Of a stretch of DNA of 64,000 nucleotides, positions 30,383-62,236 are shown one piece after another (the first letter of the stretch is position 1; the number at the start of each line of letters is the position of its first letter). The notes beneath the pieces are model-generated. The model worked only from the letters and a program-made list of their open reading frames with translations, was not told where the DNA came from and made no database searches. Both the position numbers and the translations under genes were made by a program. Origin of the DNA: Hormiphora californensis (Eukaryota > Animalia > Ctenophora); the NCBI GenBank assembly GCA_020137815.1, contig CM035359.1, positions 7,006,001 through 7,070,000 on the forward strand, read 5' to 3'.

Positions 30383-33300
30383 ATGCTTGTAATCGTTTGT
30401 TCTCTCCTTCTCCTCCCTGCCTTCATGGCTCAGGAGTGCCAGTGGGCCCAGTTCTTTGAGGACACCACTGAAGCAGAAAGCTGTGTCATTGATGGTAAGT
30501 GTTTCATTGTCATGTTCTAATCTGTCAGGCCATGATGCACTCTGACAGTAGGTGAGAGATAGATGAGCAAGGCAAGTGTTTAGATCGCTTTAATACAAAT
30601 TTCAAGTTCAATTCGGTAAATATTCATGCTCTTCATTTCCGTGTTAACCCCGTCCCATTCACTGTCAGTGTCCAAGGTTGTCTGTCTGAACAACGGCACA
30701 GACAACAAGTTGCTTATGTTGCACCTGTTGCCCACGTTTCCTTTGTTAATTTTCACCTTCCCTACTTTGTGTGTACCATACCATCACAACAACTGCAATA
30801 CGTTCACACTGCTGAATGTCAGCTCAAAGAACACCCACACACGTGCTAATCGAATGAACTGGAAGAATCAAATAGTGTGAATCTGACGTGCCTGTAAATG
30901 TGAACTGCAAAATGTGAACCGTGAAGCATTGAATTGTGGAAGATGGTTACCTGTTAGTTACCTGTTGGTTACCGGTTAGTTACCTGTTAGTTACCTGTTA
31001 GTTACCTGATAGTTACCTTTTAGTTACATGTTAGTTACATGTTAGTTACCTGTTAGTTACCTGTTAGTTACCTGTTAGTTACCTGTTAGTTACCTGTTGG
31101 TTACCGGTTAGTTACCTGTTAGTTACCTGTTAGTTACCTGATAGTTACCTTTTAGCCTGTTAGTTACCTATTAACCTAATAACACCCTTCCACTGCAGGT
31201 GTATCAGCTACAGTTGACTGTAAGACGTTGAAACCGAGTGAAAGTGGAACTGTCAATCTAAAGTGTAGCGCAGGTTTGTTCTCCATCTCACGGTCACACT
31301 TTCTCAACAGTTGAGTCAACTATTTGTTATTTAGTCCACTGCACAACTCTAAGCCGAGGATCATAAATCTAAGATTAATTAGTTAATTAATTGATGTTAA
31401 TTAACAGAAGAACCTCTATCCAGGTGATTCCCTGACTGGTTATACGAGTTACACATGCGACCAGGGTAAGATCTACCCAGTAAAATACCAAAGCAGCTGC
31501 GTGGCAGATCCAATGCCTTGTACTCCACCCAAAACTGGCAAACTGTCAAACTATATGAGGTTCCTGCAGGATGAGTATCATCAGGTTTGTAGACTTTTTA
31601 GACATAGAGTCCACCTAGAGTTTAGACTTATTTGGACGTCCTTTTTGAATCGCCCCTTTAGCATTTGTATTGTTTAGGGTTGCAGTCTACCAATGGTAGT
31701 ATCAGCCACCTATAATAGTTGTATAATTACCTGAATAAACCCATCTCAATCAGTTAGGAGCGACCCTACAAGATGTTGAATATCATGTCACCTGTGCCGA
31801 GGGATTCATGTTCAAAGATGGAACCGAAAAAGATTTGGTAATATTCTTACTAAGAAAAAACAATCCCTTTTTTGCGCGATGTTTGCTGTGCCCAAATTCC
31901 CTGTAACCACCTCACATCTCCTGTCTGGCGATGCCATACCCCAATTTGATTCTCATTGCGCTCAGATGGGGTCGGCGGCGCCAGACAGCACATCTCGGTA
32001 TCCTTCACCTATACCTTCCTTTAGGTGATGGGTAAGTGTACCTATATAAACGGACGAACTACTCTGGTATCCGATGAGGAATGCCTGCCTGCCTGTCCTA
32101 TTAAGGATGTGACTACCTTGAGTACCAACATTGACAATCTCGACAGAATCACCATCTACTACCCTACCAACCTTACCAGCGTATGTTTGGAGGCTAGCTT
32201 GATCATCAAGATCACCACGAATTTCTTTAAAACCATTCATCTGTTGTTCAATAAAAAACTGACTATACACCACAATCAATAGGTTGGAGATGGGGCTGAG
32301 GTGCATGCCCGAGCATCTTGTAGTGGACCTTACAGTTCCGGAGACCGACCTACTCCCCTTTACTGTTCTACAGTTGGTAAGAAAACATTCAAAAAGTTAA
32401 TAATTCGAACAACCAGTTTGGGTAGAATTCCCACTAAACAAACTCTGTATAAATTTATAAAGTCAAATTGACAGTTTAAAATCGCCCAGGGGTGGCCCGA
32501 AATGCTGATTATGGCGGGTATTTTAGCGAGAAGAGGGATTGTGCAGCTGATGGGAGTTGTCTAAGTTGTAAACGACACTGCACCGTCCCTGATATTGAGG
32601 ATGGGGCTGTCTTTGACAGGTAACACAAACTTTTCATCTGAACTTCAATTAGGCAGCGGATTACGGGGGCCCGAATGGATCGCCCGAATAGATCGCCCGA
32701 ATAGATCGCCTGAAAGATCTGTTCGGGCCCTCTTTGCAAGCCCCCGTAATCTAGATCATAGTCACCAGATGTATTGTTTTAACATATTGAAGCGTGAGCC
32801 ACAATTCTCCATCGCTATTTTCTGTAGAGCTGCGAGAGGCACACCCAGTTCAAAATTCTTTCCATAATGAGATCAGACAATCTAGATGAACATACATCAC
32901 AAATAGTTGTTTATGCCAAGAGTTTATTAGAATAAATAATTAGAAAATTACGAGCATTTATTCGCTGTATTTGAATTTTTCTAAAATTTGTTGGCACATA
33001 GAAACTTAATAGCTGTCCCATTCCCAAAATAGATTCACAGCGCAAGCTGCTTGTAAATGTAAATAAGGAATGCCCCAAATTGTAAATAGGCCGACTCTAA
33101 AGAATTAGGAAACTAAATTACTAAGCGCCTTGCCAAACTGCTAGGATAAATTAACGGCGTGTTCCCCTATAGATCCGGTACCGACGACAGCTCCATGAAG
33201 AAACTGGAGGCAGGTTCGGAGGCAATTCTCAGTGGAAACAAGACCGCCTATGTGAAATGTAATGAAGGATTTAACCTGATTGGTAACCGGTATCTAAAGT

Positions 33301-34780
33301 GTTCTGATGGTAGTATCATCAGCGAGATTCCTACCTGCAGTGGTGAGTATAAAATGTAGTTGAGGGTTGAGTATAAAATGTAGTAGAGGTGGTGAGTATA
33401 AATTGTAGAAGAGAGGGGTGCTGTTTGGGCAATGGACTCGTAGCACCATGAAGCTTTATTTCCTCGTCGTTTCTTGGTCCCATTTCTCTCCGTTGGTACC
33501 TACACTGCATGTAAAACAGTGTAAAATAGATCATCCCAACTAACCCTTCTGAATAGACATGTCCTCAGGGAAGGGGTCCTGTTCTGCTCCCATCATTGAG
33601 AATGGTGTCTCCGGTCCAGATAAATCATCCACCTCCTCTATCGAATACACGGTGAGTTGTGTAGAAACTAATTCTCCCACTTGTGTGACTGATATAACCA
33701 TGAATCAACTAAATGTAAAAATAGTTTATGCAACTAGCTGAACCTTCACATACTGATACATTATACAGGTGTCATGTAATGATGGTTATGCTCTGGGGGA
33801 TCCTAAAGAAAATAAAGTACAATGCTCTGTAAAGGGATCAGCATCCTATTCAACCCTCCCTGTCTGCCACAGTAAGCTGCCATTAATAATACTAATATTA
33901 CTATGACTATACTATACCACTCTCTTTTAATTTCCCTTTTTCCATTCCACATTTATAATTCCAACCTACCCCCGATCACAGTGGGTTGCAGCGTTCCCAA
34001 GGTATCAAATGGTGTAGTTCTTAACAAACCAGAGTCCTTCTCCCAAGACAAGCCGCCATTCAGGACTGGTGCTACGGTTGAGGTCGTCTGTAATGAGGGT
34101 TACATCCCAACGGTAATTAATTTATGAAACAATTCTTTCCGTAAATTATGTCTAATGTTGTGTGTCCAGAGAAATATACCTTATGCACTATTGTAGTTGT
34201 ACAAGTACAATTACTGCTAGAAAATATGTTTTGTGGCCATCAAATTTATTTGGAACCGTGGAACTGCGACGGAAGGGTGTGGGTGTACTTCCTCTTTCCC
34301 ACACACACCAAATACAAACACTTAACCAGTATTTGTGGAATTCTTGGAGTGGTGTAATTTTGTTCGGAATAACGTCACTAATTAGTAGTGCACGGTACGG
34401 CATGGGGAAAAAGACGTTAATAAAACCGCAATTGTAAAAGCTGCAATTTGTGGCCCAGATAAAGTCATTTTTTCACATCAGAGAAATTTCAGATTAAAAT
34501 TAATTGCCTTCTAAAAATGCCTTCTCTCCCAGACTGGCTCAAACAAGTGTGACGTGACGGGGTGGGTGGAACTTGACAGAGTGCATCGACGAAAATGAAC
34601 AGGAGGTGAAGAACGAAAAATCCGCAGCAAAAGGTAAATTGTCTCTACAGTCTTCACTTACAGTCTTCACTTACAATTTAAACCTTGAATTTAATAATTA
34701 CCCACTAATTAGTTGTGTTTTCAGGTGTAGGATTGGCTATTGCGATGGTTGTGGCTTCCTTCTCATACTGGCTGTTATAG
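30383..34780 (+). CDS. Secreted, probably GPI-anchored multi-CCP (sushi) domain protein (~490 aa), 13 exons
   Basis: Exons 30383-30494, 31199-31273, 31424-31584, 31754-31837, 32025-32180, 32283-32376, 32490-32619, 33173-33342, 33557-33651, 33769-33871, 33982-34112, 34533-34633, 34725-34780. Signal peptide MLVIVCSLLLLPAFMA. CCP motifs include CTVPDIEDG...VKCNEGFNLIGNRYLKCSDG..PTC and CSVPKVSNG...GATVEVVCNEGY. Terminal hydrophobic tail KSAAKGVGLAIAMVVASFSYWLL*. One extra base near 34570. Confidence 0.85.
30945..31172 (+). repeat. 11-bp minisatellite (GTTACCTGTTA)n in sushi-gene intron 1
   Basis: About 20 visible copies ending just before the branch point/acceptor. Confidence 0.95.
31921..31989. 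mobile_element. ~70-bp palindromic dispersed element
   Basis: CTGTCTGGCG...CCCCAATTTGATTCTCATTGCGCTCAGATGGGGTC...CGCCAGACAG. Relatives lie at ~57065-57132, ~52422-52460 and ~53114-53144. Confidence 0.7.
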
Positions 34781-40050: not shown

Positions 40051-43000
40051 ATGTCGAAACCGTATGAGAAACTGGAGGTAAGACAACAACTTGAAATTAC
40101 AAACCATGATTGCCCTCTATCGCAGCTTCAACCGCCCCCCCCCTCACTTATTAACTATATCTCATCTATCTTCTCAAAAATTTCACAAATTTAATAGAAC
40201 TCACCCTTCTTCCAACCTTGTGTGCGAGTTAACCCGTTTACAAGACGCAGCTGGATGCCACCTGTACAATATCGTTATGCATGCAATATCGTTATGCATG
40301 CATACAAAACTGTCATTGACCCGGACATTTCGCTGTTAGCTACTTTTTACAGGTCAAATGACCCTAATCCACCCTTTTTTCAACTGTAAAGTCGATTAAA
40401 GCAACTTTGAAAGCCCTAAAAAGCTTCCTTCGGCCATAAATCCGTTTTTATATAAAAACACAAGGATTTGTAGCGAAGCAAATTTTAAATTTTCCACCAA
40501 AATACATTAATTTGGCCATTCTGCACTCGTTTTCCATCTGAAAGGCTGTATCTTACGTACTATAGTCATTAGAACCGATTGTGAACCGCCCCCCTCACTT
40601 ATTAACTATTACCGTAATCTGGGGTAACTTTGTTTTGCAGGGTAACTTTGGACACTTTCAAAATTTGGCTTTAGTCCAAAATTACCAACAGATAACAACA
40701 GATTTGGCATAATTTTTGGGTGTACAAGTAATTGACCTACAAATGTCTAACTAACAGTACAATTATTTTTTTCAATTCTATGCTAATTAGCTCCTAATTA
40801 GGGGCAAACATAATTGATGTCAAAATCGCTAAAAATGTTCAAATCAAAATGGGTACCATAGATTTGACCGGGCTAATGACCGAATCAAGTTTGCTCCATA
40901 GAGTGGAAGGGTTTCGATCAAATAATTCGGGGCACCATTTTTCAAACCCGATCAATTACTTGAATTGAGACTAATAGGGGTGGCTAATGTTACCCCACCA
41001 TTTTTTGAATTTTGGGGTAACTTTGGACGGGGTGCCAAAGTTACCCCACACTACAGGTTTTGAACTTTTGATGTCTGTAGAGTTGCCTTAGACCCTCTCT
41101 GAATTGTTTAGGGCCATATAGTTAACCAATATTCAGCCCACTCCACGCCCATTTCCATCCATCTATTCGATGGGTTAGTGAAAAAACTAGGATTTGAACT
41201 ATTTTATGGAGCTAAATCACAGAAATCCGGCCTGAAACCCATCAAACTTCAACAATTTGGGGTTCCTCATCCATCCTGTAGCTTGTTAGATGGTATTGGA
41301 TCTCTAGGCGAGTGTTCTTGTAGACAATCTATACAGGAGCACAGGTACCAAAACTTCTTTATTTAGCCAGTACCCATAAGTAGACCACTTCCTGTCTATC
41401 TAATTCAGCAAAACGAACTAACACACTCGCCTAGAGGGCCAATACCATCTACCAAACTACAGGATGGATGAGGGACTCCAAATTACTGAAGTTTAATGGG
41501 TTTCAGGCCGGATGTGGCAACCTCTAAATCAAGTCCGATTGAGCTGAAATTTTATTTGGTGGCTAGTTTCATCATTCCTCACACCCAAAAAAGTTGAGTC
41601 GACATTTTTTTAAATCATGGGGCGTTTGGCTAACCATATTGTTCTTTTTTAATTTATTGACCCATTTAAACCCCATTTAAAAATTTTAGGTTCATTTATT
41701 TATCATTGCAAAATGTTCGGATTTATGTTTGTTCCAATATTACTATCGTGGGGTAACTTTGGACGGGTGTCCAAAGTTACCCTACCCTCATTCCAAAGTT
41801 ACCCCATGCCCTAAAACCCCACTTACACTAAAATACACGTTAATTAATGTAATTAAATGAGAGGGGACCAAAAATTTCACTAGTTATATCTGGTGTACTT
41901 GGTCTGGAACGGGATTATTTGGTCCAAAAATTTTCGAGTGTGGTTCTGGCAAGGAGTTATTTTAGGAGAATGCTAAAAAGTGGTACAAAGTTACCCCAAC
42001 TTACGGTATATCCCATCTATATTCTCAACAATTTCGCAAATTTAATAAAACTCGCCCTTCTTCCAACCTTGTGTGCGAGTTAACCCGTTTACAAGATGCA
42101 CCTGGATGCCACCTGTACAATATCGTTATGAAATTGCAATAACTTTCACAATGTGGCATTTTGGTTTTGAAGATATCTCTGTATAGATTTGAGTAGTATT
42201 TATTTACCCCCAATGCCTTCAATTTTATACGATAGTCTTAACTGCCAAAACATGTTCTTTTCCCACTCCCAGATGGCGGAGGCGTCAGAGACAGCCCAGA
42301 TCTCTACAAGCCCAGTCGAGAAGAAGGAGGAGGAAGGGGAGCGGGATGCATGGGGGGCAAAGACAGAGTACATGCTCGCCCTGATTGGTTATGCAGTTGG
42401 TATCGGTAATATTTGGAGGTTTCCCTATCTGTGTCATCGTTACGGGGGAGGTAAGATGATATCAACTACTACAGATAAGAAGTAAGATGATCATTAACAA
42501 CACTAGAGAACCTGCTTGATAACTTCCTACATTCTTTAACATTTTCTCCCTACCAGGTTCTTTCCTGATTCCCTACATCATTATGTTGTTTGTTATGGGA
42601 ATCCCTATGTTCTGCTTGGAAACCTGTTTAGGACAACTGACCAATAAGGGAGCACCTGGCGCCTTCGCGGTATATTTAATTTTGTTACGAAGTTACACCT
42701 TGCCAGCGTGCACGAAGGTCGCATCTTTAGAGGGGTTATTTCGTAACCAAATAATAATACTTAATATCGTATTCAATTGTACACCATGAATAAGAAAGGG
42801 AAACTAAAATCATCTTTTCTCAGGCAATGCACCCGCTATTTCGAGGCATTGGATATGCAGCTATGGTAGTCGATTTGATCTGCAGTTACTATTACAACTC
42901 CATCATTATGTGGATTCTGCGGTACTTCCTCTCTTCCTTCACCCTAGGTGAGTGCTCCTTTATAAGCTTAAAATATGCTCCTTCACAAAATGATTATATC

Positions 43001-46000
43001 AAACCATCCCCTCTTAGGTGATTTACCCTGGGCTGACTGTCCCTTGAACTCAACCTGCTGTATCCACTCCGACAACGCCACAATGCACTACTGGTGAGTG
43101 ATAGATCACAAGCTCCTAATTCAATGAACTCCATTTTATATGACTATTTCCCCAGGTACTATGACGCACTAAAGGCAAGTAACGATATTGGAGTGGTCGG
43201 AGGAATTGACTGGTACCTCTTTGGGTGTCTTGTCATCGCGTGGGTGGTCTGTTTCCTTTGTATGTGCAAAGGTAAGTGTAACACACATTACAACATTTGT
43301 CAACCAATCATTTTTTGCAAAGCTATATGAACACCAGGAACCGACCGAAACAAGTAAACAACCAATCAGAACTCGTTATTTAGGTCACGTGACTGGTTAT
43401 CAGCCAATCAGGGACCAGTATTTCGGTTCCTACTAAACGCAATCTCTACTTCAGGAGTTGAATCATCTGGTAAAGTGGTCTACTTCACAGCCACATTCCC
43501 CTACGTTCTCCTTGTGGTTCTGTTCTTCCGTGGTGTAACCCTCCCTGGAGCAGGAGAGGGCATCAAATATTACATTACACCAAAGGTAGGGGCATCAAAT
43601 ATTACATTACACCAAAGGTATAGGGGCATCAAATATTACATTACACCAAAGGTAGGGGCATCAAATACTACATTACACCAAAGGTATAGGGGCATCAAAT
43701 ATTACATTACACCAAAGGTAGGGGGCATCAAATATTACATTACACCAAAGGTAGGGGGCATCAAATATTACATTACACCAAAGGTAGGGGCATCAAATAT
43801 TACATTACACCAAAGGTAGGGGCATCAAATACTACATTACACCAAAGGTAGGGGCATCAAATATTACATTACACCAAACCGGTAGGGGCATCAAATATTA
43901 CATTACACCAAAGGTAGGGACATCAAATATTACATTACACCAAAGGTAGGGGCATCAAATATTACATTACACCAAAGGTAGGGGCATCAAATATTACATT
44001 ACACCAAAGGTAGGGGCATCAAATATTACATTACACCAAAGGTAGGGGCATCAAATATTACATTACACCAAAGGTAGGGGCATCAAATATTACATTACAC
44101 CAAAGGTAGGGGCATCAAATATTACATTACACCAAAGGTAAGGGCATCAAATATTACATTACACCAAAGGTAGGGGCATCAAATATTACATTACACCAAA
44201 GGTAGGGGCATCAAATATTACATTACACCAAAGGTAGGGGCATCAAATATCACATTACACCAAAGGTAGGGGCATCAAATATTACATTACACCAAAGGTA
44301 GGGGCATCAAATATTACATTACACCAAAGGTAGGGGCATCAAATATTACATTACACCAAAGGTAGGGGCATCAAATATTACATTACACCAAACCGGTAGG
44401 GGCATCAAATATTACTCTCTCACTAACCCTCCCCTCCCTGCTATAGTGGGAGCACTTAATGAACCCGGAAGTTTGGAGAACTGCAGCCACCCAGATCTTC
44501 TATTCTCTGGGTATTGCGTTTGGTAGTGTTGTCGCTTACAGTTCCTACAACAAGAAGAATAACAACTGTCTATTAGGTAAGCGGTTATTACCTGCACCGG
44601 GGTGGCGGGGTGTCCCTCCTGTTCGGTCATCCATTAACCACGTGTAGAATTAGTAAATACAAGGATCTCTGTAAACCACGTGTAGAATTAGTAAATACAA
44701 GGATCTCTGTAAACCACGTGTAGAATTAGTAAATACAAGGATCTCTGTAAACCTTTTCACACACACACACACACCACGTCTTTTCAGATGGTATTATTGT
44801 GACTCTGATAAACTGTTGTACCAGTATTTTCGGAGGTTTCGTCATCTTCTCTATCCTGGGATACAGAGCACACAAAACAGGTACAGAACCCTTTTTGTAA
44901 TTTAAGTTAGTGATTCGAACCAATATGTTATGCCAGAAAAAATTGTTTCACCGCTAAAAACGACTTTGTTTTAGGTGTGAAGTTTGAGAACCTGAAATCA
45001 GGACCTGGACTGGCGTTTGTTGCCATAACTGATGCAATCTCTGAAATGAGTATTGGACCACTTTGGGCCATCCTCTTCTTCTTTATGTTGTTCCTTCTTG
45101 GTCTGGACAGTCAGGTAACTTCCCCTGAACTTCTCCTGAACTGCTAAACCCAAGAAGGACTCTATATCTAACCCTAACCTTTACACTAACCCCTAAACTC
45201 GCACCCAATTAACGGCTCTAACACTTCTGAGTATAGAGGCACAGCAAACTTCCCCTGAACTTCTCAATATATTGTAAAAGTATATTAAGGTTCACCGTCT
45301 CTCACCCCACCCCGTGCCTGAAGAAAGTTTAACCCTTTCTTCACTAGTTTGGTATGTTGGAGAGTCTACTCACCTCCCTGAAGGACGAGTTCCCTATACT
45401 CAACAGAGCCAGAAAGGAACTTGTATCAGGTAATCCTTTTGGTGACGCAGTCACCCTACATCTTATCTTCAGGAAGTATCTGTTTGTTAACCCGCTAACA
45501 TCTTATCTTCAGGAAGTATCTGTTTGTTAACCCGCTAACATCTTATCTTCAGGAAGTATCTGTTTGTTAACCCGCTAACATCTTATCTTCAGGAAGTATC
45601 TGTCTGTTAACCCGCTAACATCTTATCTTCAGGAAGTATCTGTTTGTTAACCCGCTAACATCTTATCTTCAGGAAGTATCTGTTTGTTAACCCTAACATC
45701 TTATCTTCAGGAAGTATCTGTTTGTTAACCCGCTAACATCTTATCTTCAGGAAGTATCTGTTTGTTAATGCTAACATCTTATCTTCAGGAAGTATCTGTT
45801 TGTTAACCCGCTAACATCTTATCTTCAGGAAGTATCTGTTTGTTAACCCGCTAACATCTTATCTTCAGGAAGTATCTGTTTGTTAACCCGCTAACATCTT
45901 ATCTTCAGGAAGTATCTGTTTGTTAATGCTAACATCTTATCTTCAGGAAGTATCTGTTTGTTAACGCTAACATCTTATCTTCAGGAAGTATCTGTTTGTT

Positions 46001-48041
46001 AACCCGCTAACATCTTATCTTCAGGAAGTATCTGTTTGTTAACCCGCTAACATCTTATCTTCAGGAAGTATCTGTTTGTTAACATCTTATCTTCAGGAAG
46101 TATCTGTTTGTTAACCCGCTAACATCTTATCTTCAGGAAGTATCTGTTTGTTAACCCTAACATCTTATCTTCAGGAAGTATCTGTTTGTTAACCCGCTAA
46201 CATCTTATCTTCAGGAAGTATCTGTTTGTTAACCCGCTAACATCTTATCTTCAGGAAGTATCTGTTTGTTAACCCGCTAACATCTTATCTTCAGGGAGTA
46301 TCTGTTTGTTAACCCGCTAACATCTTATCTTCAGGAAGTATCTGTTAACCCGCTAACATCTTATCTTCAGGAAGTATCTGTTTGTTAATGCTAACATCTT
46401 ATCTTCAGGAAGTATTTGTTTGTTAACCCGCTAACATCTTATCTTCAGGAAGTATCTGTTTGTGAACACGCTAACATCTTATCTTCAGGAAGTATCTGTT
46501 AACCCGCTAACATCTTATCTTCAGGAAGTATCTGTTTGTTAACCCGCTAACATCTTATATTCAGGAAGTATCTGTTTGTTAACCCGCTAACATCTTATCT
46601 TCAGGAAGTATCTGTTTGTTAACCCGCTAACATCTTATCTTCAGGAAGTATCTGTTTGTTAACCCGCTAACATCTTATCTTCAGGAAGTATCTGTTTGTT
46701 AACCCGCTAACATCTTATCTGCAGGAAGTATCTGTTTGTTAACCCGCTAACATCTTATCTTCAGGAAGTATCTGTTTGTTAACCCGCTAACATCTTATCT
46801 TCAGGAAGTATCTGTTTGTTAACCCGCTAACATCTTATCTTCAGGAAGTATCTGTTTGTTAACCCGCTAACATCTTATCTTCAGGAAGTATCTGTTTGTT
46901 AACCCGCTAACATCTTATCTTCAGGAAGTATCTGTCTGTTCTTGTTCATCGCTGCTATTCCTATGGCCTTCCAGGGAGGGCTCTACATTGTGGACATTCT
47001 GGATAACTGGTCCCTATCATACCCTCTCCTCATCATTGCCGTCACTGAGATGGTCGCTGTTTCCTGGGTGTATGGAGTGGACAGATTCGCGGATGAGATC
47101 AAGGAAATGATAGGATACCGACCTAACTTGTACTTCACCATCTGCTGGAAGGTAAAACTCTTTCATCAATATAATGGGAAAAGGGATGAAACTTGAGTAG
47201 GCCGAAATTTCCCGTCATCAGATCACATCAAATCACCTTACCCAGTATCAGATTATCCCTCTAGGATCGGATCATATCCCACTCAGGATCAGATCTTAGA
47301 TACTACCTATCAAGCACTCTGTGTGATGTGATCCCCCTTATCTTATATTAGAGAGATAGCGAAAGTTAGAGATAGAGGGAGAGAGGGAGTAAGAGTGAAC
47401 AACGGGCCCTAGTAAAGATAAAATATATTGCTCAACACAACTAACATACATTTTACTTTCAGTATGTTAGCCCTGTTCTAGTTTCCCTCCTCATCCTGTC
47501 TGGTATTGTCCTGAGTATTCTCCAAGGTTATCCCAGCTACGAGAAGTTTGTTGGTTGTGATAACACCACCCTCATCGATCAGGTACATATTTCTTATGAT
47601 ATGTTTCACTTCTTCTTCTTCTTCTGTTTCACTACTTACTTAGTATTTGTTTCTTAGTATTTGTTTGTTTGAAAGAACTTCATGACCAACATTCCCCCAC
47701 CTATTATAGGGTCTTGCGCCTGAAGCCACGGCCAGTTGGGTGGTACCCGATAAAATGCCCGGAGGAGTAGTAGGATTCATAGTATTAATTAACATGGCGT
47801 AAGTAAAGCTATACTATTCTACAAGTCTCTAACTTCATGTTATCTACCGAATTGCCAAGCTAAACTGCCACTCGCGGGGTTGAACAAAACAACTACCGAA
47901 GTAGACGGCCCCGGGCCGGGATCTCACATTGTAACACCCTCATAACACCCTCATAACACCACATTATATCTCAGGTCGTGTTTCATGATCCCCCTGTACG
48001 CCATCAAGTACTTCAACGACAAACGAAGGTCCAGATTATAG
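40051..48041 (+). CDS. SLC6 / neurotransmitter:sodium symporter (NSS) family transporter, amino-acid type (~570 aa)
   Basis: Probable first coding exon 40051-40077 (MSKPYEKLE, phase 0), then 42273-42450, 42557-42669, 42824-42947, 43018-43093, 43156-43271, 43455-43585, 44447-44576, 44788-44880, 44975-45114, 45348-45429, 46925-47151, 47463-47582, 47710-47798, 47975-48041. Signature motifs: [67 protein letters not shown]1 has Gly rather than the monoamine-transporter Asp. Confidence 0.95.
40612..42006. mobile_element. Non-autonomous Tc1/mariner(pogo)-like DNA transposon, 1.4 kb, in SLC6 intron 1
   Basis: TA-flanked TIRs CCGTAATCTGGGGTAACTTTG / CAAAGTTACCCCAACTTACGG, repeated subterminal GGGGTAACTTTGGAC motifs, and an internal inverted repeat at ~41222-41515. 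Confidence 0.85.
43336..43431 (+). mobile_element. Short dispersed element (CCAAT-GTCACGTGAC-CCAAT core)
   Basis: A near-identical reverse-complement copy lies at 56782-56876 and a degenerate copy at ~20140-20220. Confidence 0.85.
43559..44415 (+). repeat. Minisatellite of ~26 x 32-34 bp; unit = last 27 nt of an SLC6 exon plus its splice donor
   Basis: Unit GGCATCAAATATTACATTACACCAAAG|GTAGG; the first copy is the true exon end at 43585. Confidence 0.97.
44637..44752 (+). repeat. 38-bp tandem repeat x3 in an SLC6 intron
   Basis: AACCACGTGTAGAATTAGTAAATACAAGGATCTCTGTA. Confidence 0.9.
45458..46940 (+). repeat. Minisatellite of ~37 x 40 bp; unit = branch point + acceptor + start of an SLC6 exon
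   Basis: Unit CCCGCTAACATCTTATCTTCAG|GAAGTATCTGTTTGTTAA; the last copy is the true acceptor at 46924/46925. Confidence 0.97.
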
Positions 48042-48477: not shown

Positions 48478-51400
48478 TCACATATAGGGGTTGGGTTTAA
48501 CACTCCTTCTAAACTCCCTATCAGCTTTAGCTTCATCCAGTGGTTTAGTTTTGAACAAATCCTTAATTCCCTGTTCAAACCTCCTCCACCTCCTATCAGC
48601 TCGGATATGCTCCGGGGTCACTACTGGAGGGATCGATTCAACTGGAGTGAGGGGAGGAGAGTTGACAGTGAGATCACTCATAAAGTCCTCGAACTGTTGG
48701 ACTAGCTTGTGATGTTCAACCCAGAGCTCCTCCAATACATCCATTAAACTGGAGTCGTTATCCTACAATTGGTGGGGTGGTGGTGGTGGTGGTGGCATAC
48801 AGTACTGGGATGCTGAAAACTGTGCTTCATGCGTTGCGAGGTTTTGATGTTGTCTGGTTGTGCGTAGCTCTAAATATAGCCCTTAACAATGCATGGAAAT
48901 CGTGCCAAAAATAGATGAACAATAAAAAATGCGTAAAATTTTATTTTAAGGGCTATTGACGAGCTCAATTCCATCTTATATACTACTGTAAATATGTATT
49001 AAACAAACAAACTGACCCACATACATTATGTGGGTCAGTTTGTTTCTGCTTCCCCACAGAACTATGATAGTACTAGGGGGAAGCAGCATGGCTCTGAAAA
49101 ATAAGGATAGATAAATGCAGTAGTATTATAATTATGGTATAGGGGGGGGGGGTCACTTACATAAAAGAGAGCTTCCTCAACGTCAGTCCTCAGCAACCGA
49201 ACCTCATCACACAGATCCAGTATCAAGAGATGCCTCTTACTCAGACCACCCCTCTTTTTATTTTTAACTAGCTCAGAGAGACTGGTAGAGGTGGATCTGT
49301 TCACCGCCTGGAGAGGGTCAATTAGGAAGTGGGCCGGCTGACTTGGTGACATAGACACCTGGCGCGACCCCCGCTTAGTGTGTGAGCTCAATCTCGGTCG
49401 CGCCAGGTGTATATTTCACCAAGGGGCTGACCACGTGATCAGTTTGGTAGTTCTTCAAACCAGTACACCATAATATAGAATTAGTTGTAAAACAAAAGAT
49501 TCAACTGTGACAGAATATCATTTGTCTCCTGCTTAACAAAGTGAAGAAGAGGCGAACTAGGGTCAGCACACACCTACGCCAAAATCAAAATTATAATTTT
49601 GATTTTGGCCTAGGTGTGTGCGGACCCCTAGACAACTCTAAACAGTGGTACAAAATGTGGTACCATTGAATCTTGATATTCATTTGCCAATTTTAATGTC
49701 CCTGTTTCAGATCAGCTTGTATTGTCTCTGTGATAGTACAATGTTGATTTGTCAGTCTGTCGATAGGAACGTGTTCATGCTTGTCGGACAATGTCAATGT
49801 CATCAGAGTCTGGAATGAGACCCGGTGGCTTTTTCTTCATTCTCTGTTGTCGTTTGTGTTCCTTTACCACTTTCTTTTCCTGTGAATTTTACTGTCATGT
49901 TTTGTCTGTCAGCAGCTACAATTTCTACACGCCAGACTCTTTTTGGTCAAACCATGGACTCTTTTTGATCACTCTACTTAGGAGATCGCCGGGGAAGGAC
50001 CTGTATTTATCAACCCTGTTTCCTACTACTCACTTACCTCTTCTAAGGGCCTGTTTTTATCAATCCTGTTTCCTACTACTCACTTACCTCTTCCTTAATC
50101 CACGGGTAGATCTCAGCGACGGTTGCTTTCTTCTTTTTCTCTGTTACTTTCTTTCGTTCCACCGCCGTGTCAAACTGGGTGGGGACGTGTGTGTGATACT
50201 TCTAATTTTACATTTTTACAATTGCTGCGAAAGATTCTGAGTAGACTATCAAGTAGCACTACAGTCGGACCCCGATTTACCGGGATGCTCGGGGATAGGG
50301 TTTTGACCGGTAAATCGGGGTGCCCGGTAAATCGAGGTCCGACTGTATAATGCTTTTAACGACTTCTATTCCTAAAGCTACTACTACTCGCGTCTCGCAT
50401 ACTCTATCGTTTTTTGCAGGGGCAAGCCAGAACCTTCCTAATCCAAGAAGATTAACAAATCCAGCAGCAATCCCGGGTCCCTGATCTCTCCTCCTCCTAC
50501 TATCCCTGATCCCTCCAGTCTCTACATCTGCTGACGAAGCGGGGTCCGAGGAGGAAGTTGATAATTGACTGAGGGTCAAATCCGATACATTAGAGGTATC
50601 AACATCACTGAATGCCTGTAGAGATTCCTCAGAGGACACCTCACAGACAGATGTCTCTGTGAGAGAACTCTCACCAACCTCCACATCTCTGGGGTGTCTC
50701 TGAATCCTCCTCTTCCGGGGAATACCCTCAACATCAGAATCAATAATAGACCCATCCTCACTCGAGTCCTTCAATCCAAAACTCAGGGTTATCTTCCGAG
50801 GTTTTAGTTTAAGATCCTCTGGTGATGCCTCTCCACTAGCTGCACCACCCTCTGCAGATGATCCACCAGGGGAGGATGTGAAGGAAGAGGAAGAGGTATC
50901 GTAATCCGAACACGAGGAAGATGACGAGATGGGGGTGAGGGGGATGTCATCATCATCATGGGGGATCAGAGGTGTACCTGCATCTGCCACCTCACCTACT
51001 GTTACCTCCCCCAGTATGGCATTAGATGCAGCCTCACCACCTGGGAAATCACCAAGGATATCATCAGAGTGCTGCTGGACAACAGTGCAAACTCCAGTAC
51101 AACAGACATCATCAGAATGTGGGAGTCCTTCAATGTCTCCTAGTTCCACTGTGGATCGTGATGGATCAGTGCGTTGTGGTGGATCAGTCACTGTGGATGG
51201 TGGATCAGTGATCACAGTGCGTTGTGGTGGATCTACAGCTGCTGGAAGTGGTGGGGCAGTTATTTCATCCAGCAGTACCTCCTCCAGACTGAGTGTCCTG
51301 ATCCCATCTCCCAATAACACCACCTCATCACCACCTGTGTCCACCTCTCCCAATAACACCTGCACCTCATCACCACGTGTGTCCTCTTCCTCCTCTTCCA

Positions 51401-54406: not shown

Positions 54407-55592
54407 TTACACCTTCATGTTGATAGGTAGAGGTACAAAAACATCATTCCACCCTCCTACCACCATGATATTCTTGTCATTCTTCTCAGTAACGAACATC
54501 CTCTCCAACCACCCCTGGAGTTCGGTAACTAGAGAGTAGCCGAGTTGGAGGACACGCTTATTGTTCTTTATCGTACTGACTTCGTTCTTTCCCTAATGAG
54601 GGGGGGGGGGTCATTATAAAGGAGGGAACTCCGAGAGGGATAGAGGAACTATAGGATGGAATCCGAATAGTCCTGGAATATTCCACGGTTATATTATGAC
54701 CGGGGGGGGGGGGGGGGGTGGCAGACTTACCAATATGTCGGACAGCAGTTTAGGGCACTCATCCTTGATACTAATGTCCTTTAAAGGGCGACACACCTCA
54801 GGTTTCTTGAGCTGTGGAAATATGTGGTATCAAAGGGGAGAAACGATATGTTTTCTGGCTAAACAGACAACAAGATATATGTCAAGACCCCCAATACCAT
54901 GCTAAACTTACCAGCTCCTCAACTGGTATGTCAAGACCCCCAATAGCATGCTAAACTTACCAGCTCCTCAACTGGAATGTAGAGGTCATTGAAACTCTGA
55001 GACTTCATGAACCGACTCGTTGGATTCGTCTTTATCTGCATCTCCAATAGACATTTCAACTGCAAAAATATCTCCCCGATCCTCTCACCGAACTCTTCCA
55101 GTGTCTGAAATTGGGATAATAATAATAATGGGATAATATGGGTGTTTGATATTGTCTGGTATCCATGAGAATCAAATCAGTGTCTGGCACCCTGCCAGAT
55201 AGAACTGATTGGTGGTGAGTGGTGTTTACTATTGGATCTTCTACTAGAAGCTCTTACCGAACGAGTGTTAGCAGGGAGGCAGGTAGAGAGATCACTGACA
55301 GCGACAAATTCAACCTGGTCCAAAATCTAAAAATAAATATATTATGTTGATGTTAAGTGGGTACATGAAATATTCTTTCTGTCTCACTTACATCGTTCTG
55401 TATTTCAATGGAAGCGAGCCAGCCATCCATTATGGAGTTAGATAGTGGCCTGGGTCCGGGGGCACACTGAAATTGTGCCTGCGACTGCTGTGTCCCATTG
55501 GTTGCCACAATCACTGCGGCTCCATCGACAACCAGTTGTTTAGAGGATATGTGGAGGGAGAAAAGGAGGGGTAGGAGCCAGGACACCATCAT
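54407..55592 (-). CDS. Secreted 226-aa protein, candidate long-chain four-helix-bundle cytokine (IL-6/CNTF/CLCF1-like)
   Basis: Five exons, all introns phase 0: 55392-55592, 55258-55326, 54961-55104, 54731-54811, 54407-54592. Signal peptide MMVSWLLPLLFSLHIS...VDG/AA, four amphipathic segments, 5 Cys, one NGT sequon. A probable non-coding upstream exon has its donor at 55946. The gene model is well supported; the cytokine assignment is an inference. Confidence 0.8.
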
Positions 55593-55891
55593 GGGGGGAT
55601 CTAGAGGGGAAACTGTGTCAATCATGAGTCCATTAAATGGGGGATCTAGAGGGGGAAACTGTGTTAATTGAGTCCATTAAATGGGGGATCTAGAGGGGGA
55701 AACTGTGTCAATTGAGTCCATTAAATGGGGGATCTAGAGGGGGAACTGTGTCAATTGAGTCCATTAATGGGGGATCTAGAGGGGGAACTGTGTCAATTGA
55801 GTCCATTAAATGGGGGATCTAGAGGGGGAAACTGTGTTAATTGAGTCCATTAATGGGGGATCTAGAGGGGGAAACTGTGTCAATTGAGTCC
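55593..55891 (-). repeat. ~7 x 42-43 bp tandem repeat containing the acceptor of the cytokine-like gene's first coding exon
   Basis: Minus-strand unit AATTGACACAGTTTCCCCCTCTAG|ATCCCCCATTTAATGGACTC. Confidence 0.9.
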
Positions 55892-56592
55892 AGGCAATAC
55901 CCGCAATTGGAAAGTAGAGGCTCTATGGACAACAGATATATCTTACCTAGATAAGTAGACTGTAGTAGATTATAGAGATCTCAACATCTTCCAACCATCG
56001 CCCCCTTTTTATACTCCCCCGATTTATTCTTTCAAACTGTTTTTAATTAGAAAACCTATCTCTCTGCATCCGTTGGTGAATCTCCCCATCTAGCTAACAC
56101 ATGTATCTCTCCAGTCTCCGATAGAATCTACCGACCCATTTATCCTTTAGATACCCAACGTGTCTCCTACTCGAAAAAAGTTAATTTAAAAAGTTTAATT
56201 GCAAGTTAAAAATAGTACAACTGCTAACATATCAGTTCCCTACTATATTGCAAAGGAAACAATATTTCCATGAACAACATGTGAGTTAGATTGTTTGGCA
56301 GCAGATTGCCAACAGGTGACGGTTAGACTTTAGATAGATTTAGTATTCAAAATACAAGGTATATGGGGGGTAGTAAATAGATACAACTTTACAGGACCAC
56401 ATTCGCCGTTTTAAATAGTTTACACCTTTTTATATTTACAGTTTTTAGTGTTGATAATGTGGGGTTTGCGTGTATCATGGTAGCGGTAGCACACATATGC
56501 AGTGTGATACAATTAGTGTATCTTCAGACATTATGGACCGGCCAAAAAACAGAAAGAATGAAAGAGAGATGATTTAGAGAGAATGAGAGTGT

Positions 56593-58035
56593 CTAGAAAG
56601 CAGTTTTAAGGTCGTGAAATTGATCGTCAATCCTCATGTCTCGTTGCATTGCAGTTTTGTCGCTCACTTTTGCAGTTAGTACCACGTGTTGAAGCTGTGG
56701 AAAATACGGAATTTAGTTGACCCAGCTGATACTTCAAGCCAGATAGAGTAAAAAATAGCACTAGATTGAGATACAATGAAGCAAGAACCGACCAAATCAG
56801 GAAATACTGGTCCCTGATTGGCTGATAACTAGTCACGTGACCTAAATAACGAGTTCTGATTGGTTGTTTACTTGTCTACAATGAAGAACTTACCACGCCT
56901 ATCCTGAGCTCCATCTGAATTAGTTCATTCTTTATCTTGGTGATGGCCTGTTTAATCTTCACCAAGGGGCCACTGTCTGTCATGGTGGTTCCCTTCTCAT
57001 CCATCTGAGCCTTGACAGTCTCCAACTCTTCATTTATCTAGGAGGTGAGACACGTGTTATAGTTGTCTGTATTGCGGCCCCATACCCCATTTGATTCTCA
57101 GTGCGCTCAGATGGGGTCGCGGCGCCAGACAGGTTATAGTTGTCAGTGTCTGCTTGTCACTAGATAAGAAGGATTGTACATATACAATTATACAATTAGA
57201 TACCTGTGCAAGAGTGCGGCTTTGTTCGGTGACCGTGGAACCAGCAGTCTGGTACTTGTTCTCCAACTCTGCCAACCTGTAGAAAACAAGTCACACGGAT
57301 AGCTGACGGTATCATTCGAGCCAGGAAAAAGATTTGCAGTGCGAGCAGCGAGGTACAGCATTTGAGCCAGGCATCACTAAAAATATTTACAGAACGAGGT
57401 ACAGCAAAACCAAACCAAACCAAACCAAGACACTAAAAACACTAGTGTCAAAATATATCCCCCAGGTTGGCTAGAAAATACATTTCCCTACCTGTCTTTG
57501 AGGCGGCGGTACTCCTCAAGTGGGCCTTCCATTTGGCTGTTAATGTACTTCTCTCTGCTTCCAATCTTCTCAAGAGTCCGTGTAATCTCTTGATGCATCT
57601 GATCCAGTTGAGTCTAGAGAGGGATTTAGGGGATATTATTGGGATATTATTGGGGGTTAGGGGAGATTATTGGGATTTAGGGGATATAATTGGGAGATAG
57701 GGGAGATTATTGGGAGTTAGGGGATATTATTGGGATTTAGGGGATATTATTGAGCGTTAGGGGATAATATTGGGAGTTGGGGGATATTATTGGGAGTTAG
57801 GGGACATTATTGGGAGTTGGGGGAGTATTGTTGAGAGATAGGGGAGATTATAGGGACGTGAACTGCAGCAGCATACCTTGCTTGAAGTCAGGGAAGTTGT
57901 CATATTCTTCCTGTATTCCAGCATACTGTCCAGGTGGGTTCTCCAGTCCTGGGATACTGACTCCTAAAGACGTGATGTCACACATAGATGCTTCACAATA
58001 TCACAAGGCATGGGAGAGAGGGAGAGAGAGAGAGG

Positions 58036-58092
<57 letters not shown>

Positions 58093-58126
58093 GAGAGAGG
58101 GAGAGAGAGATAGAGAGAGAGAGGAG

Positions 58127-58178
<52 letters not shown>

Positions 58179-59315
58179 GAGAGAGAAGGCTTCTAGGAGG
58201 CGAGGAGAGAGAATGAGACATAGGAGACGCCGCGCAGCGAGAGCGGCCGGAGGGGAGATGGCCGTGGATCTTTTCAAGGAAGGTCACTTATAATCACACT
58301 TTTGAAACTTCCACCCTACGATTTAAACACAACACTAACCTTATCGTGTTTCAGATGAACCTTGAGAGAGGGCAGAACTCTTTCAACCTCCATCTTCCAT
58401 TCCAAAACATCAGTGTTCGATTCCAGTAGGTTCTCTTGTCTTTGAACCTGAATTTAGAAACATTGTGAAGAGACGGGTGCCGATTGAGAACTCGATTTAA
58501 AGTTATGCACTTGTCTGCAGATTTTACTTCTAAAAGTACTACTAGCTGTAGCAATACTAATATTACTGCTAGTAGTAAAATGATCATTACCTCAGCGGCA
58601 TTCTCAAATCCTGTACCAGAGGCTCCTGGCATCCCAGCGCCACTCTCTCCTACATCAACCATAATCTCTTCTTCGCAATCCTCATCTATTTCCTCATCTA
58701 ATGAAGGTTAGGAATTTCAATATTTTATTAAAAACACTTGTGACTTGTTTATTATAACAGTAGAGAACAGGAGCATCCTTCCTTTTAACTTTGTATTCTC
58801 TATAGTACTGTATATTACCGTCGATCTGCTCGTCTAGAGGCTCATCCTCTATTGCCTCTTCCTGGGCGTCTTCTTCTGTATACTCAGGCCTGAGGAAATA
58901 AAAGCCTTTCATTTCCTTTTATAAAAAAGGGAAACATGACAGACAAAATGACAATTTGACATACACAGGACAAACAATTTGTGTCAGTTTGTGTTGTGAT
59001 TGCGCGCACATGCAACAGAACAGAAGATGCCTACACTTTCTACTTTCAACTTATCAGAAAACTCGCGCGCAACAACTCAAGGGGATTATCAATCAAATGT
59101 GACCGTCGTAGCTATGGGACAATCAAATAAAACTGAGAATAATCAAAAGAAAGGGAAGAATTAAATAGATAAACACTGCTGACTGCCGACGCTTTTTGCA
59201 ACGAGTTGGAAATAAAAAACAAAGGAGACGAAACAAAAATAATTAGCTACCTGCCCCAAGCAAAGCGTCGTGTTTCAAGGGCTTTGCTAGCCAGTTGGTT
59301 GAGGATGTAGCATAC
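56593..59315 (-). CDS. IFT57: Intraflagellar transport protein 57 (3' nine exons; 5' exons not found in window)
   Basis: Exons 59251-59315 (VCYILNQLASKAL..WGR), 58819-58889, 58591-58697, 58340-58447 (EWKMEVERVLPSLKV), 57877-57948 (DWRTHL), 57492-57613 (ITRTLEKIGSREKYIN), 57204-57276, 56894-57037 (MTDSGPLVKIKQAI...RIGV) and 56593-56694. These are diagnostic IFT57/Hippi motifs. Confidence 0.96.
56782..56876 (-). mobile_element. Same short element in the last IFT57 intron, with a 10-bp flanking direct repeat
   Basis: TACAATGAAG at 56772-56781 and 56877-56886. Confidence 0.85.
57620..57855 (+). repeat. Degenerate ~20-bp minisatellite in an IFT57 intron
   Basis: Recurring GGGGATATTATTGGGAGTTA variants. 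Confidence 0.85.
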
Positions 59316-59370
59316 CTGGTGAGGGAAGAATTAATATATAATATCTTATATCAGCTTATCTTATATCAGC

Positions 59371-59971
59371 TTGTGCAGCAAGACTTATCTCTTTCTGCAC
59401 AACTCAACGATCTCGTTTCACACGAGCGATCTTGGGATTTCCCAGCGAACATGGTATATCCAGCGACTAAACCGAAACGAATCATGATATGTAACCATAG
59501 TTCACATTTAATCTCTATTCCCGACTACAATTCCTTCTCCCTCTCTCTCTCCCACAAAGAGAGAAACTGTTTCCAGTTTAACGCTCTCTCTCTCTCTCTC
59601 CAATCTCCCTTTTTTACGGCAGAAATACACTCTCCCCCTCAGTTTAACGCTCTCTCTTCTTTTTTTACAGAAGAAACGATATCTCTCTCTCCCCTCAAAC
59701 TACGCGATATGTCACGCACTGTGCTAATTAAAAAAATCCATCTTCACTTCCTAACTCAGTTGTGCAGCAAGACTTATCTCTTTCTGCACAACTCAACGAT
59801 CTCGTTTCACACGAGCGATCTTGGGATTTCCCAGCGAACATGGTATATCCAGCGACTAAACCGAAACGAATCATAATATGTAACCATAGTTCACATTTAA
59901 TCTCTATTCCCGACTACAATTCCTTCTCCCTCTCTCTCTCCCGCAAAGAGAGAAACTGTTTTCCAGTTTAA

Positions 59972-60010
<39 letters not shown>

Positions 60011-60702
60011 ATCTCCCTTTTTTACGGCAGAAATACACTCTCCCCCTCAGTTTAACGCTCTCTCTTCTTTTTTTACAGAAGAAACGATATCTCTCTCTCC
60101 CCTCAAACTACGCGATATGTCACGCACTGTGCTAATTAAAAAAATCCATCTTCACTTCCTAACTCAGTTGTGCAGCAAGACTTATCTCTTTCTGCACAAC
60201 TCAACGATCTCGTTTCACACGAGCGATCTTGGGATTTCCCAGCGAACATGGTATATCCAGCGACTAAACCGAAACGAATCATAATATGTAACCATAGTTC
60301 ACATTTAATCTCTATTACCGACTACAATTCCTTCTCCCTCTCTCTCTCCCGCAAAGAGAGAAACTGTTTTCCAGTTTAACGCTCTCTCTCTCTCTCCAAT
60401 CTCCCTTTTTTACGGCAGAAATACACTCTCCCCCTCAGTTTAACGCTCTCTCTTCTTTTTTTACAGAAGAAACGATATCTCTCTCTCCCCTCAAACTACG
60501 CGATATGTCACGCACTGTGCTAATTAAAAAAATCCATCTTCACTTCCTAACTCAGTTGTGCAGCAAGACTTATCTCTTTCTGCACAACTCAACGATCTCG
60601 TTTCACACGAGCGATCTTGGGATTTCCCAGCGAACATGGTATATCCAGCGACTAAACCGAAACGAATCATAATATGTAACCATAGTTCACATTTAATCTC
60701 TA
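59371..60702 (+). repeat. ~390-408 bp tandem repeat, 3.4 near-identical copies, in an IFT57 intron
   Basis: Units start at TTGTGCAGCAAGACTTATC at 59371, 59760, 60168 and 60556, and differ mainly in (CT)n length. Confidence 0.95.
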
Positions 60703-61636
60703 TTATTTGCCTCCACCCACCCCTCCGCCCACCCCCCCCCCCCGCCTCACCCGTCCCAAAGTAGAGGACTTTCTGAAACAGGTTACTATAGAGACAATCC
60801 TTGTGTTCTAATTCGCTAAGTCGCTTATCGCGTGTAAGTGTGTAACAACTCACAAATGTAGTAGCAAAACTACTCCCCCGATACTGCTTTGCAGGTACGC
60901 TGCCCCTGCAGGCATACAGATACTAATTTTTGAATAAATACTATCTGGTTGAATAACAATTTCAAGATCTAGATCTAAAATAAACCTCCGATATTTTTTA
61001 ATCCCTACTACCCTCCACCCGCCCCGAACCGCCCCGCCCACCACCAATATATTCATACTAAACAAAACTGTGGACTAAGAACAAATCCTTGCTAGTTCAG
61101 CCTTCTAACCCAATCGGACTTAATTAGTCCTAATCAGACAGATAGGTCTCACATTACACATATAATACGTACAATACCCGTCCTGCCACTTATAATGTAA
61201 ACCTACCATATGCCAGACCAATTCAAGATACTATAATACTATAATAATGAAACCCCAAACACCTAATATGTGGGTGACCTAAAATCCTAAAAACGGAGGC
61301 AAAACCTCGTACAATAACCTATGTAAAACGATAATAAACCACACCGCAGTAGCTATCAGGCCTAATCGAGACTAAAGAATAGAAAGCGACATCCCCTCTT
61401 GTCGCAGGGGGATAGAGCCACGGAGCCAAGAATCACAGAAAGAAGAATCAAGATTCTGCGACTCTCGAAGGAGTTTAGTCTCCCGAACCCGAAGCCACCT
61501 ATAATGCGAACCTGTCCTGTGGTCAGTTCCTGATGGTGGGGGAGGGGAGGGGGGCTATTCTCCTAGTGCCGGCGATATCGCTTTGCGATAGTCCCCTGTG
61601 GGCTTGCCGTTGGCAAGCCCAGGCACTCCGTAGATA

Positions 61637-62236
61637 GATCACTGCGCTGGCAAGCGCAAAGGTGACCCCATCCATCCCCCGAAAAAAATTTCCCCCAAAA
61701 ACGGCCCGCTTGCTCACAGCGTATATATAGTTATTTCATACTTTTAGCCCCTTTTGGCACTTTTTGACATGCCATAACTCCCGAACCGGAAGAGCTAGGA
61801 AGCCGAAATTTTGTACTTAGAAGCTTCTTGTAGACCTCTATCGATGGTAAAAATTTCAAGTGGCTAGCTCTTTTTGTTCAAAAGTTATAACACCACCCCC
61901 AAAACAGAAAATTCAGTGTGGGGATAACTAGGTTGATCACTGCGCTGGCAAGCGCAAAGGTGGCCCCATCCAACCCCCCGAAAAAAATTCCCCCAAAAAA
62001 CGGCCCGCTTGCTCACAGCGTATATATAGTTATTTCATACTTTTAGCCCATTTTGGCACTTTTTGACACGCCATAACTCCGGAACCGGATGAGCTAGGAA
62101 GCTGAAATTTTGTACTCAGAAGCTTCTTGTAGACATCTATCGATGGTAAAAATTTCAAGTGGCTAGCTCATTTTGTTCAAAAGTTATAACACCAACCCCA
62201 AAACAGAAAATTCAGTGTGGGGATAACTAGGTTGAT
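61637..62236 (+). repeat. Two ~298-bp tandem copies of a transposon-derived unit
   Basis: GATCACTGCGCTGGCAAGCGCAAAGG at 61637 and 61935, with a third copy of this head at ~63147. Confidence 0.85.

Follow-up and report, generated by a model that had tools for sequence, protein, structure and literature searches.

How a transcript finds one acceptor among 38 that look almost alike is the question raised by a minisatellite in the ctenophore Hormiphora californensis. The repeat lies in the window analyzed here (64,000 nt of contig CM035359.1) and occupies an intron of a gene for an SLC6/SNF sodium-dependent transporter (see table). Three of three exon translations scored above the gathering score of Pfam PF00209 (SNF), with 47-75 bits against a cut-off of 27. 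The first nine codons of the gene (40051-40077) were inferred from the protein P0125 and read from the sequence.

Features of the transporter locus (positions within the 64,000-nt window)
Feature	Position	Strand	Details
Host gene, SLC6/SNF sodium-dependent transporter	40051..48041	+	15 coding exons, ~570 aa
Mirror-image donor-spanning minisatellite, same gene	43558..44415	+	32 bp x 26.5; 26 GT donors
Upstream exon (FGMLES...RKELVS)	45348..45429	+	RNA joint 45112-45346 in runs X7 and X9
Host intron of the acceptor array	45430..46924	+	1,495 nt, GT..AG, phase 1; junction shown by RNA contigs
Acceptor-spanning minisatellite (mirage)	45458..46940	+	40-bp unit, 37.8 copies
Degenerate first copy	45458..45472	+	Lacks CTAAC; only 43 nt from donor
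Decoy acceptors	Last bases 45472 to 46884	+	n = 37
Real downstream exon	46925..47151	+	227 nt; Pfam SNF PF00209 positions 393-466

Tandem Repeats Finder (TRF) reports the array with a period of 40 bp, 37.8 copies, 95% matches, and a score of 2693. Each unit joins about 24 nt of the intron 3' end (CTAAC, a pyrimidine tract, and CAG) to 16 nt from the start of the next exon. The array is a head-to-tail repeat of the gene's own intron/exon boundary, and its last copy is the real junction, where the intron ends at 46924 and the exon starts at 46925. A first-pass annotation of this DNA had described about 37 complete acceptors making up nearly the whole 1.5-kb intron; both points stand, with 38 CAG acceptors counted (37 decoys and the real one) and 98% of the intron covered. 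Its account of the unit (GCTAAC, tract, CAG, and exon start) was also correct, except that the exon copy measures 16 nt rather than about 15 and that the first copy (45472) lacks CTAAC. CAG is kept at all 38 acceptors, and the 25 nt upstream contain CTAAC at 36/38 and GCTAAC at 34/38. A homogenized core is accompanied by a diverged boundary unit: 22 of the 37 units are identical, and the first copy is degenerate. Over intron positions -24 to -1, 26 of the 37 decoys have the same sequence as the real acceptor. Mean identity between the real site and the decoys is 0.95 at -24 to -1, 0.92 at +1 to +16, and 0.27 at +17 to +40; the information separating the real acceptor from the decoys is in the exon body.

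Splicing to a decoy does not preserve the transporter. The typical upstream copy had been said to read GSICLLTR and then TAA, which is the case for 27 of the 37 decoys; the reading frames of the remaining 10 end after 4-18 residues, and in all 37 products the premature stop is followed by three further introns. The AAG four bases past each CAG never restores the transporter frame. These stops arise at every upstream acceptor because the unit is 40 nt long (40 mod 3 = 1) and carries stops in two of three frames, with a TAA inside the unit, so premature termination is expected by default for such a unit. Use of decoys 2-7 would give introns of 83-281 nt (83 nt for decoy 2 and 123 nt for decoy 3), inside the 62-311 nt spanned by the 11 introns of the gene without a junction array. 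Splice sites flanking short introns are expected to pair across the intron, and with introns as short as those of this gene such pairing would favor decoy 2 or 3, a counterpoint to any choice made from the exon side.

Four distinct RNA or RNA-like runs (X7, X8, X9, and X10) were compared, in the form of low-depth contigs assembled from seawater metatranscriptomes. Both contigs that cross the junction (X9 and X10, from two studies, with junction depths of 3.1 and 15.8) join the last acceptor. In X9, the upstream exon runs straight into true-exon sequence, which carries the decoys' T at +11; X10 begins at 46921 with upstream-exon letters ahead of it. All upstream-exon variants visible in X9 (3/3) and X10 (2/2) recur in the DNA run X5, in whose contig at least one full decoy unit is present. 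Positions 46870-46911 have no coverage in X7 and X10. X7 has no listed piece over the junction and X8 gave no alignment, and neither counts as evidence of absence. Two transcript-type proteins, P0001 (311 aa; contig of 1,235 nt; 308/311 identical to the gene model) and P0125 (570 aa; contig of 2,077 nt; 538/561 identical), read the 11-residue junction peptide without insertion. The earlier claim that only the final copy is productive was confirmed: 46924 alone is open, and the RNA contigs and both proteins use it. No decoy junction was seen in the two crossing contigs, and the decoy read-through signature occurred in 0 of 125 fetched proteins, a weak result as nearly all are distant homologues. 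A second round of homologue searching returned, besides P0001, only distant SLC6 proteins (best 46%), and metagenome contigs scanned for the exon start gave 0 matches. Regular splicing at the array, as seen in both contigs and both proteins, describes the dominant mRNA only: the RNA is not matched to an individual with a 38-copy allele, assembled contigs drop rare forms, and nonsense-mediated decay (NMD) would hide decoy-spliced mRNA. 

The array is a "mirage" minisatellite, the type described in lancelets (PMC3087553). With a probability of roughly three in four, it is a tolerated, near-neutral repeat whose decoys likely lose to the acceptor nearest the downstream donor. It would have been born in one duplication spanning the junction of the SLC6 gene and have grown to 38 acceptors by slippage or unequal crossing-over. 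The spliceosome would work across the real exon and match its downstream donor to whichever acceptor is closest, an exon-side (proximal) choice; any small leak to the decoys would be removed by NMD, and the repeat would probably have no regulatory role. Strict exon definition, suggested at the outset, agrees with this reading insofar as the choice falls on the exon side, but such behavior is nothing unusual and has been described before for repeats of this type. RNA structure was considered as the selector and rejected, with predicted unpaired probabilities for branch site, tract, and AG of 0.51/0.43/0.65 in decoys 2-37 vs. 0.56/0.42/0.61 at the real site. A five-unit array had no folding advantage over shuffled units, of which 35 in 100 were as low.

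The same gene contains a second, donor-spanning array, which the first-pass annotation did not include. Its first donor, where the exon ends at 43585, is the homologous one, and at this point ITPK/LTPK-W is uninterrupted in P0125 and in P0002, a protein of Mnemiopsis. Four of its 25 decoys are in frame and open. Of the window's other repeats, 13 were inspected and five of them are junction-like too, with similar repeats at unrelated genes. The arrays are not demonstrably enriched at junctions: when 40-nt windows are taken from the non-exonic part of the host gene, 45% span a junction, the probability of at least two of three arrays doing so is about 0.4, and the two of three found are at chance level. 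Junction-spanning copies are expected by chance because the host gene is so intron-dense.

Splicing at the acceptor array could instead be leaky without being regulated, a sizeable share of long-allele transcripts going to decoys or retaining the intron and then to NMD, as a mild load rather than a dial. The perfect copies among the decoys, the ordinary intron lengths that decoys 2-7 would give (those at 83 and 123 nt being the likeliest sites), and the premature stop in each product all fit such a leak. Neither the crossing contigs nor, more weakly, the 125 proteins contain a trace of it, however, and lancelet RT-PCR data are reported to show regular splicing (PMC3087553), so this reading is unlikely. 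It is highly improbable that the leak has become an NMD-coupled tuning knob, in which repeat number sets the productive fraction of mRNA under selection. Although all 37 decoys lead to premature stops and some human tandem repeats modulate splicing (PMC10078293), the stops are unavoidable for this unit, the sister array has open in-frame decoys, unrelated genes of the window have repeats of a similar kind, and no decoy use was seen. A related organism (organism B) bears on conservation through a single DNA contig, which aligns over 46912-47018 and then continues for 94 letters unlike the decoy unit; it weakly suggests that the array is not conserved. The contig of the other organism B run ends inside the exon; the X17 contig stops at 46933 within that exon and carries no intron information. 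The dial proposed in the first-pass annotation thus found no positive evidence in RNA that consists of assembled contigs, and the stops on which it drew follow from unit length.

The remaining readings concern the intron itself. If both junction arrays shrank to a single unit, their introns would measure 35 nt and 52 nt, less than the 62 nt of the shortest intron elsewhere in the gene, and the arrays may therefore not be fully dispensable. An array needed as a spacer, where the original intron body was lost, at least two units keep the intron above a minimum length, growth is free, and one-copy collapse is selected against, would also suit the degenerate first copy so close to the donor. The DNA run X5, from another sample and study, is in line with this: its intron starts with another, shorter sequence, and units come immediately after it. 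The X5 contig ends inside the repeat. The spacer is compatible with the tolerated mirage rather than exclusive of it, and as an account of its own it is very unlikely. In a composite reading, for a ctenophore with introns of about 60-300 nt, amplified copies of the introns' own splice junctions have taken the place of the intron bodies. The arrays are then the intron, a few copies being a required spacer while copy number tunes transporter mRNA through an NMD-removed leak to decoys at normal intron distance; this composite is decidedly unlikely. Stepwise removal, unit by unit, was another suggestion of the first-pass annotation. Recursive splicing sites consist of an acceptor AG directly followed by a donor GT. 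A GT does lie four bases past the AG in each unit, and a GTATCT donor appears, from the sequence, to serve another of the window's genes, but the decoys read CAG/GA or CAG/GG and AG/GT occurs at 0 of 37. Using the +4 GT would leave GAA at each step, none of which is present in X9, P0001, or P0125, and would excise one unit as an intron of 37 nt, a length below that of every intron in the gene. Stepwise removal is contradicted for the main mRNA and hardly tenable overall. Finally, the copy number is that of the assembly, and the comparison used contigs, yet an assembly artifact is barely credible. The 37 units fall into 12 types with patterned differences, and the X5 contig holds at least one full decoy unit and a unit-to-unit junction of a 38-nt type that also occurs in the window. 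Summed X5 contig depth over the units (3,082 vs. 935) was not taken as copy number.

As a member of a known repeat type, the array is of little importance, and its value is that of a natural experiment: a short-intron animal of a very early-branching lineage apparently ignores 37 near-perfect acceptors, several of which lie as far from the donor as a normal intron is long. Mildly new are silent decoys at 83 and 123 nt, within that normal range. Should raw RNA bear these observations out, exon-side acceptor choice would operate in this lineage too, and mirages would be a feature of animals at large, not a peculiarity of lancelets. With its paired donor and acceptor arrays, the gene offers a compact minigene system, and such arrays mislead gene prediction. 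A literature search outside the subscription journals found no ctenophore mirage in print, and this is apparently the first case.

Among known systems, recursive splicing resembles the array in having several acceptor-like sites in one intron; it differs in its AG/GT ratchet points, which give rise to intermediate lariats or a saw-tooth read coverage in nascent RNA, whereas here no donor is regenerated, the intron is short, and the mRNA has no footprint. In regulated unproductive splicing, which is coupled to NMD, an alternative site places a premature stop far ahead of a subsequent junction, and the stops of all 37 decoys, each with three introns after it, have the same arrangement. Such a site is in actual use, more so when NMD is blocked, and is shared by related species; the contigs examined here show no use of a decoy. 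For mirages, the original Adh3 study reportedly gave unit lengths of 10-72 bp.

Amphioxus mirages are described in Adh3, the globins BflGb6 and BflGb9, troponin C, and PGBD5, and are reported as not disturbing splicing (PMC3087553, PMC3902484). As in BflGb6, the ctenophore repeat combines the intron 3' end with the 5' part of the next exon. It also shares with amphioxus mirages the kept AG signals, normal splicing as far as the dominant mRNA is concerned, the capacity of both 5' and 3' boundaries to be duplicated, a diverged boundary unit beside a homogeneous core, and a unit within the Adh3 range (PMC3087553). Mirages are further marked by unstable length from one haplotype to another (PMC3087553); here, X5 differs from the window at the intron 5' end and carries at least one decoy. 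The differences are its host, a ctenophore rather than a cephalochordate, its 38 copies against 3-6 in BflGb6, the presence of acceptor and donor arrays in one gene, and an array that makes up nearly the whole intron (PMC3087553). Human splicing-associated and exon-boundary internal repeats are likewise tandem repeats at or near boundaries; changes in their length can affect splicing or give rise to introns, with measured effects (PMC10078293, PMC2812944), whereas the ctenophore array showed none in the assembled RNA. The human F7 intron 7 VNTR (37 bp, 5-9 copies) is also a junction-spanning minisatellite in which the exon-proximal copy is used: minigene tests showed that the copy adjoining the authentic exon is chosen and that identical 5' pseudo-sites stay silent, whether or not they give a stop (PMC1557585). 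The F7 repeat lies on the donor side and so matches the array at 43558-44415, and the acceptor array is its mirror image (PMC1557585).

The array detected by TRF at 45458-46940 (period 40, 37.8 copies, score 2693) occupies 98% of a 1,495-nt intron (45430-46924) in an SLC6/SNF transporter gene modeled with 14 exons from 42273 onward. Among named proteins, the closest comes from the ctenophore Mnemiopsis leidyi, with 70% identity over the exon and 407/561 residues (73%) over the model; non-ctenophore animal proteins reached at most 49% identity in homologue searches, which makes a ctenophore the likely source of the sequence. The array contains 38 CAG acceptors, 36 of them preceded by CTAAC at no more than 25 nt; 22 of the 37 units have the same sequence. 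CTAAC is missing from the first copy, which sits 43 nt away from the donor. Use of any of the 37 upstream acceptors (decoys) ends the reading frame, in 27 cases after GSICLLTR and in 10 with a stop after 4-18 residues, and 46924 is the sole open acceptor. The first-pass annotation had described this arrangement accurately; its anatomy, the GSICLLTR stops, and the restriction to the last copy were all reproduced.

The same annotation raised the possibility of an assembly artefact, a doubt removed by DNA run X5, whose sample and study differ from those of the best-matching runs. One X5 contig joins the upstream exon to an intron start that is shorter and of different sequence, continues through one full unit, and ends at a second acceptor; another leads from an array unit into the real exon. 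The array is real DNA, and these contigs therefore place at least one decoy in a second sample; the 21 runs listed are all assembled contigs, which give no copy number. Compared with 45115-45470, X5 differs strongly in two neighboring introns (in one, 150 nt are skipped and 24 other letters are present; in the other, the array intron, the start differs) and at few sites in the exons. Either a high level of indel polymorphism in introns or a divergent population may account for these differences. At 45146-45247, summed X5 contig depth exceeded 200,000 over a short high-copy intronic repeat beside CCCTAA-like hexamers.

Of four separate RNA or RNA-like runs compared, two gave a contig across the junction (X7 had no piece crossing it and X8 had no match). 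Both crossing contigs use the last acceptor. Rare forms are lost from assembled contigs, products of decoy splicing would be degraded by NMD, and the RNA is not matched to a 38-copy allele. In X9, the upstream exon is joined directly to true-exon letters (depth 3.1); the X10 contig starts at 46921, preceded by upstream-exon letters (depth 15.8). Neither X7 nor X10 has coverage of the decoy at 46870-46911. All visible upstream-exon variants in X9 (3/3) and X10 (2/2) are shared with X5, the decoy-bearing haplotype, a sign, short of proof, that these mRNAs derive from alleles with decoys. Two proteins, P0001 (311 aa, 1,235-nt contig; 308/311 identical) and P0125 (570 aa, 2,077-nt contig, perhaps from a close relative; 538/561 identical), also cross the junction without insertion, on contigs too short for introns. 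RNA and protein thus agree with the earlier claim that only the last copy is productive.

Mean identity between real and decoy acceptors is 0.95 at -24 to -1, 0.92 at +1 to +16 of the exon, and 0.27 at +17 to +40, and predicted accessibility showed no difference between them; the choice must therefore depend on the body of the exon or on how far away the downstream donor lies. The last copy yields an exon of 227 nt and the upstream copies exons of 267-1,679 nt. We infer exon-side pairing, in which the acceptor nearest the downstream donor would be chosen. Against this, decoys 2 and 3 would create ordinary introns of 83 and 123 nt, given that the gene's introns lacking a junction array, 11 in all, measure 62-311 nt. 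The earlier interpretation is partly supported, exon-side choice being the likeliest reading here too. Its stepwise alternative, unit-by-unit removal of the intron, requires a donor at each decoy, and all 37 lack one, reading CAG followed by GA or GG. Splicing from the GT at +4 would add GAA to the mRNA at every step, a footprint absent from X9, P0001, and P0125.

An NMD-coupled dial linking expression to repeat number, also proposed, gained no positive support. A stop is certain on decoy use because the 40-nt unit shifts the frame and carries stops in two of three frames. In the gene's donor array, by comparison, 4 of 25 decoys are in frame and open. More weakly, one DNA contig from the related organism B aligns to 46912-47018 and continues with 94 letters unlike a decoy unit. 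Collapsed to one unit, the gene's two junction-array introns would measure 35 and 52 nt, less than its shortest other intron, and a few units may therefore be needed as an intron spacer. At both places (43586-44446 and 45430-45472) the original intron body seems to be missing. That the array acts jointly as needed spacer and copy-number dial is highly improbable.

Splice-junction repeats and associated features in the window
Feature	Position	Strand	Details
SLC6/SNF transporter gene	within the window	+	Pfam PF00209 in 3/3 exon translations tested
First coding exon, 9 codons	40051-40077	+	implied by P0125
Donor-side mirage, same gene	43558-44415	+	32 bp x 26.5, 26 GT donors
Acceptor-like mirage	55594-55892	-	44 bp x 6.9, 7 TAG acceptor-like sites
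Two-copy donor-spanning duplications (GTAAG)	54878-54980, 49995-50093	-	49 and 50 bp
24 bp x 3 repeat	33340-33413	+	begins 3-4 nt before GTGAGT donor; third copy recreates donor

Use of the donor-array copies ending at 43651, 43717, 43750, and 43783 would preserve the frame and insert 22-66 residues; homologous proteins match the product of the first donor. Thirteen other repeats, hand-picked from the TRF list, were inspected, and 5 have a splice-site-like junction at their start or within them (donors 33340, 43558, 49995, and 54878; acceptor 55594), that at 43558 being backed by homology and the other four read from sequence. Enrichment at junctions was not shown (45% of non-exonic 40-nt windows in the gene span one). 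The last site of the acceptor-like mirage (55601) is followed by a 209-nt exon that contains an ATG and whose start resembles a signal peptide, and this repeat likely sits in a 5' UTR intron with its donor at ~55946. Two intronic minisatellites, at 57641-57856 (minus strand; 20 bp x 10.8, CTAAC-like motifs) and 30946-31173 (plus strand; 11 bp x 21), end just before acceptors, with the AG outside. A 34-bp satellite at 25299-27652 (~65+4 copies, strong G skew, broken by an unrelated 60-nt piece near 26117-26180) had no visible link to a splice junction. Long-period tandem repeats occur at 59366-60705 (408 bp x 3.4) and 61637-62236 (299 bp x 2). A multi-exon gene at ~56630-59320 (minus strand) has coiled-coil-like exons that may resemble intraflagellar transport protein IFT57.

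The acceptor array belongs to a known kind, the mirage minisatellite of lancelets, whose unit, as described in PMC3087553, spans an exon-intron boundary of its own gene; no ctenophore example was found in the literature searched. Further literature for comparison includes PMC10078293, PMC2812944, and PMC2095810. For Hormiphora, PMC8527503 describes 13% tandem repeats and a high heterozygosity of intronic indels. Exon-side choice matches older globin duplications cited in PMC1557585, which used the proximal copy, though a similar study found the opposite. The human F7 intron 7 minisatellite described in that paper resembles the array and matches exon-side choice: only the exon-adjacent site is used, regardless of stop codons.
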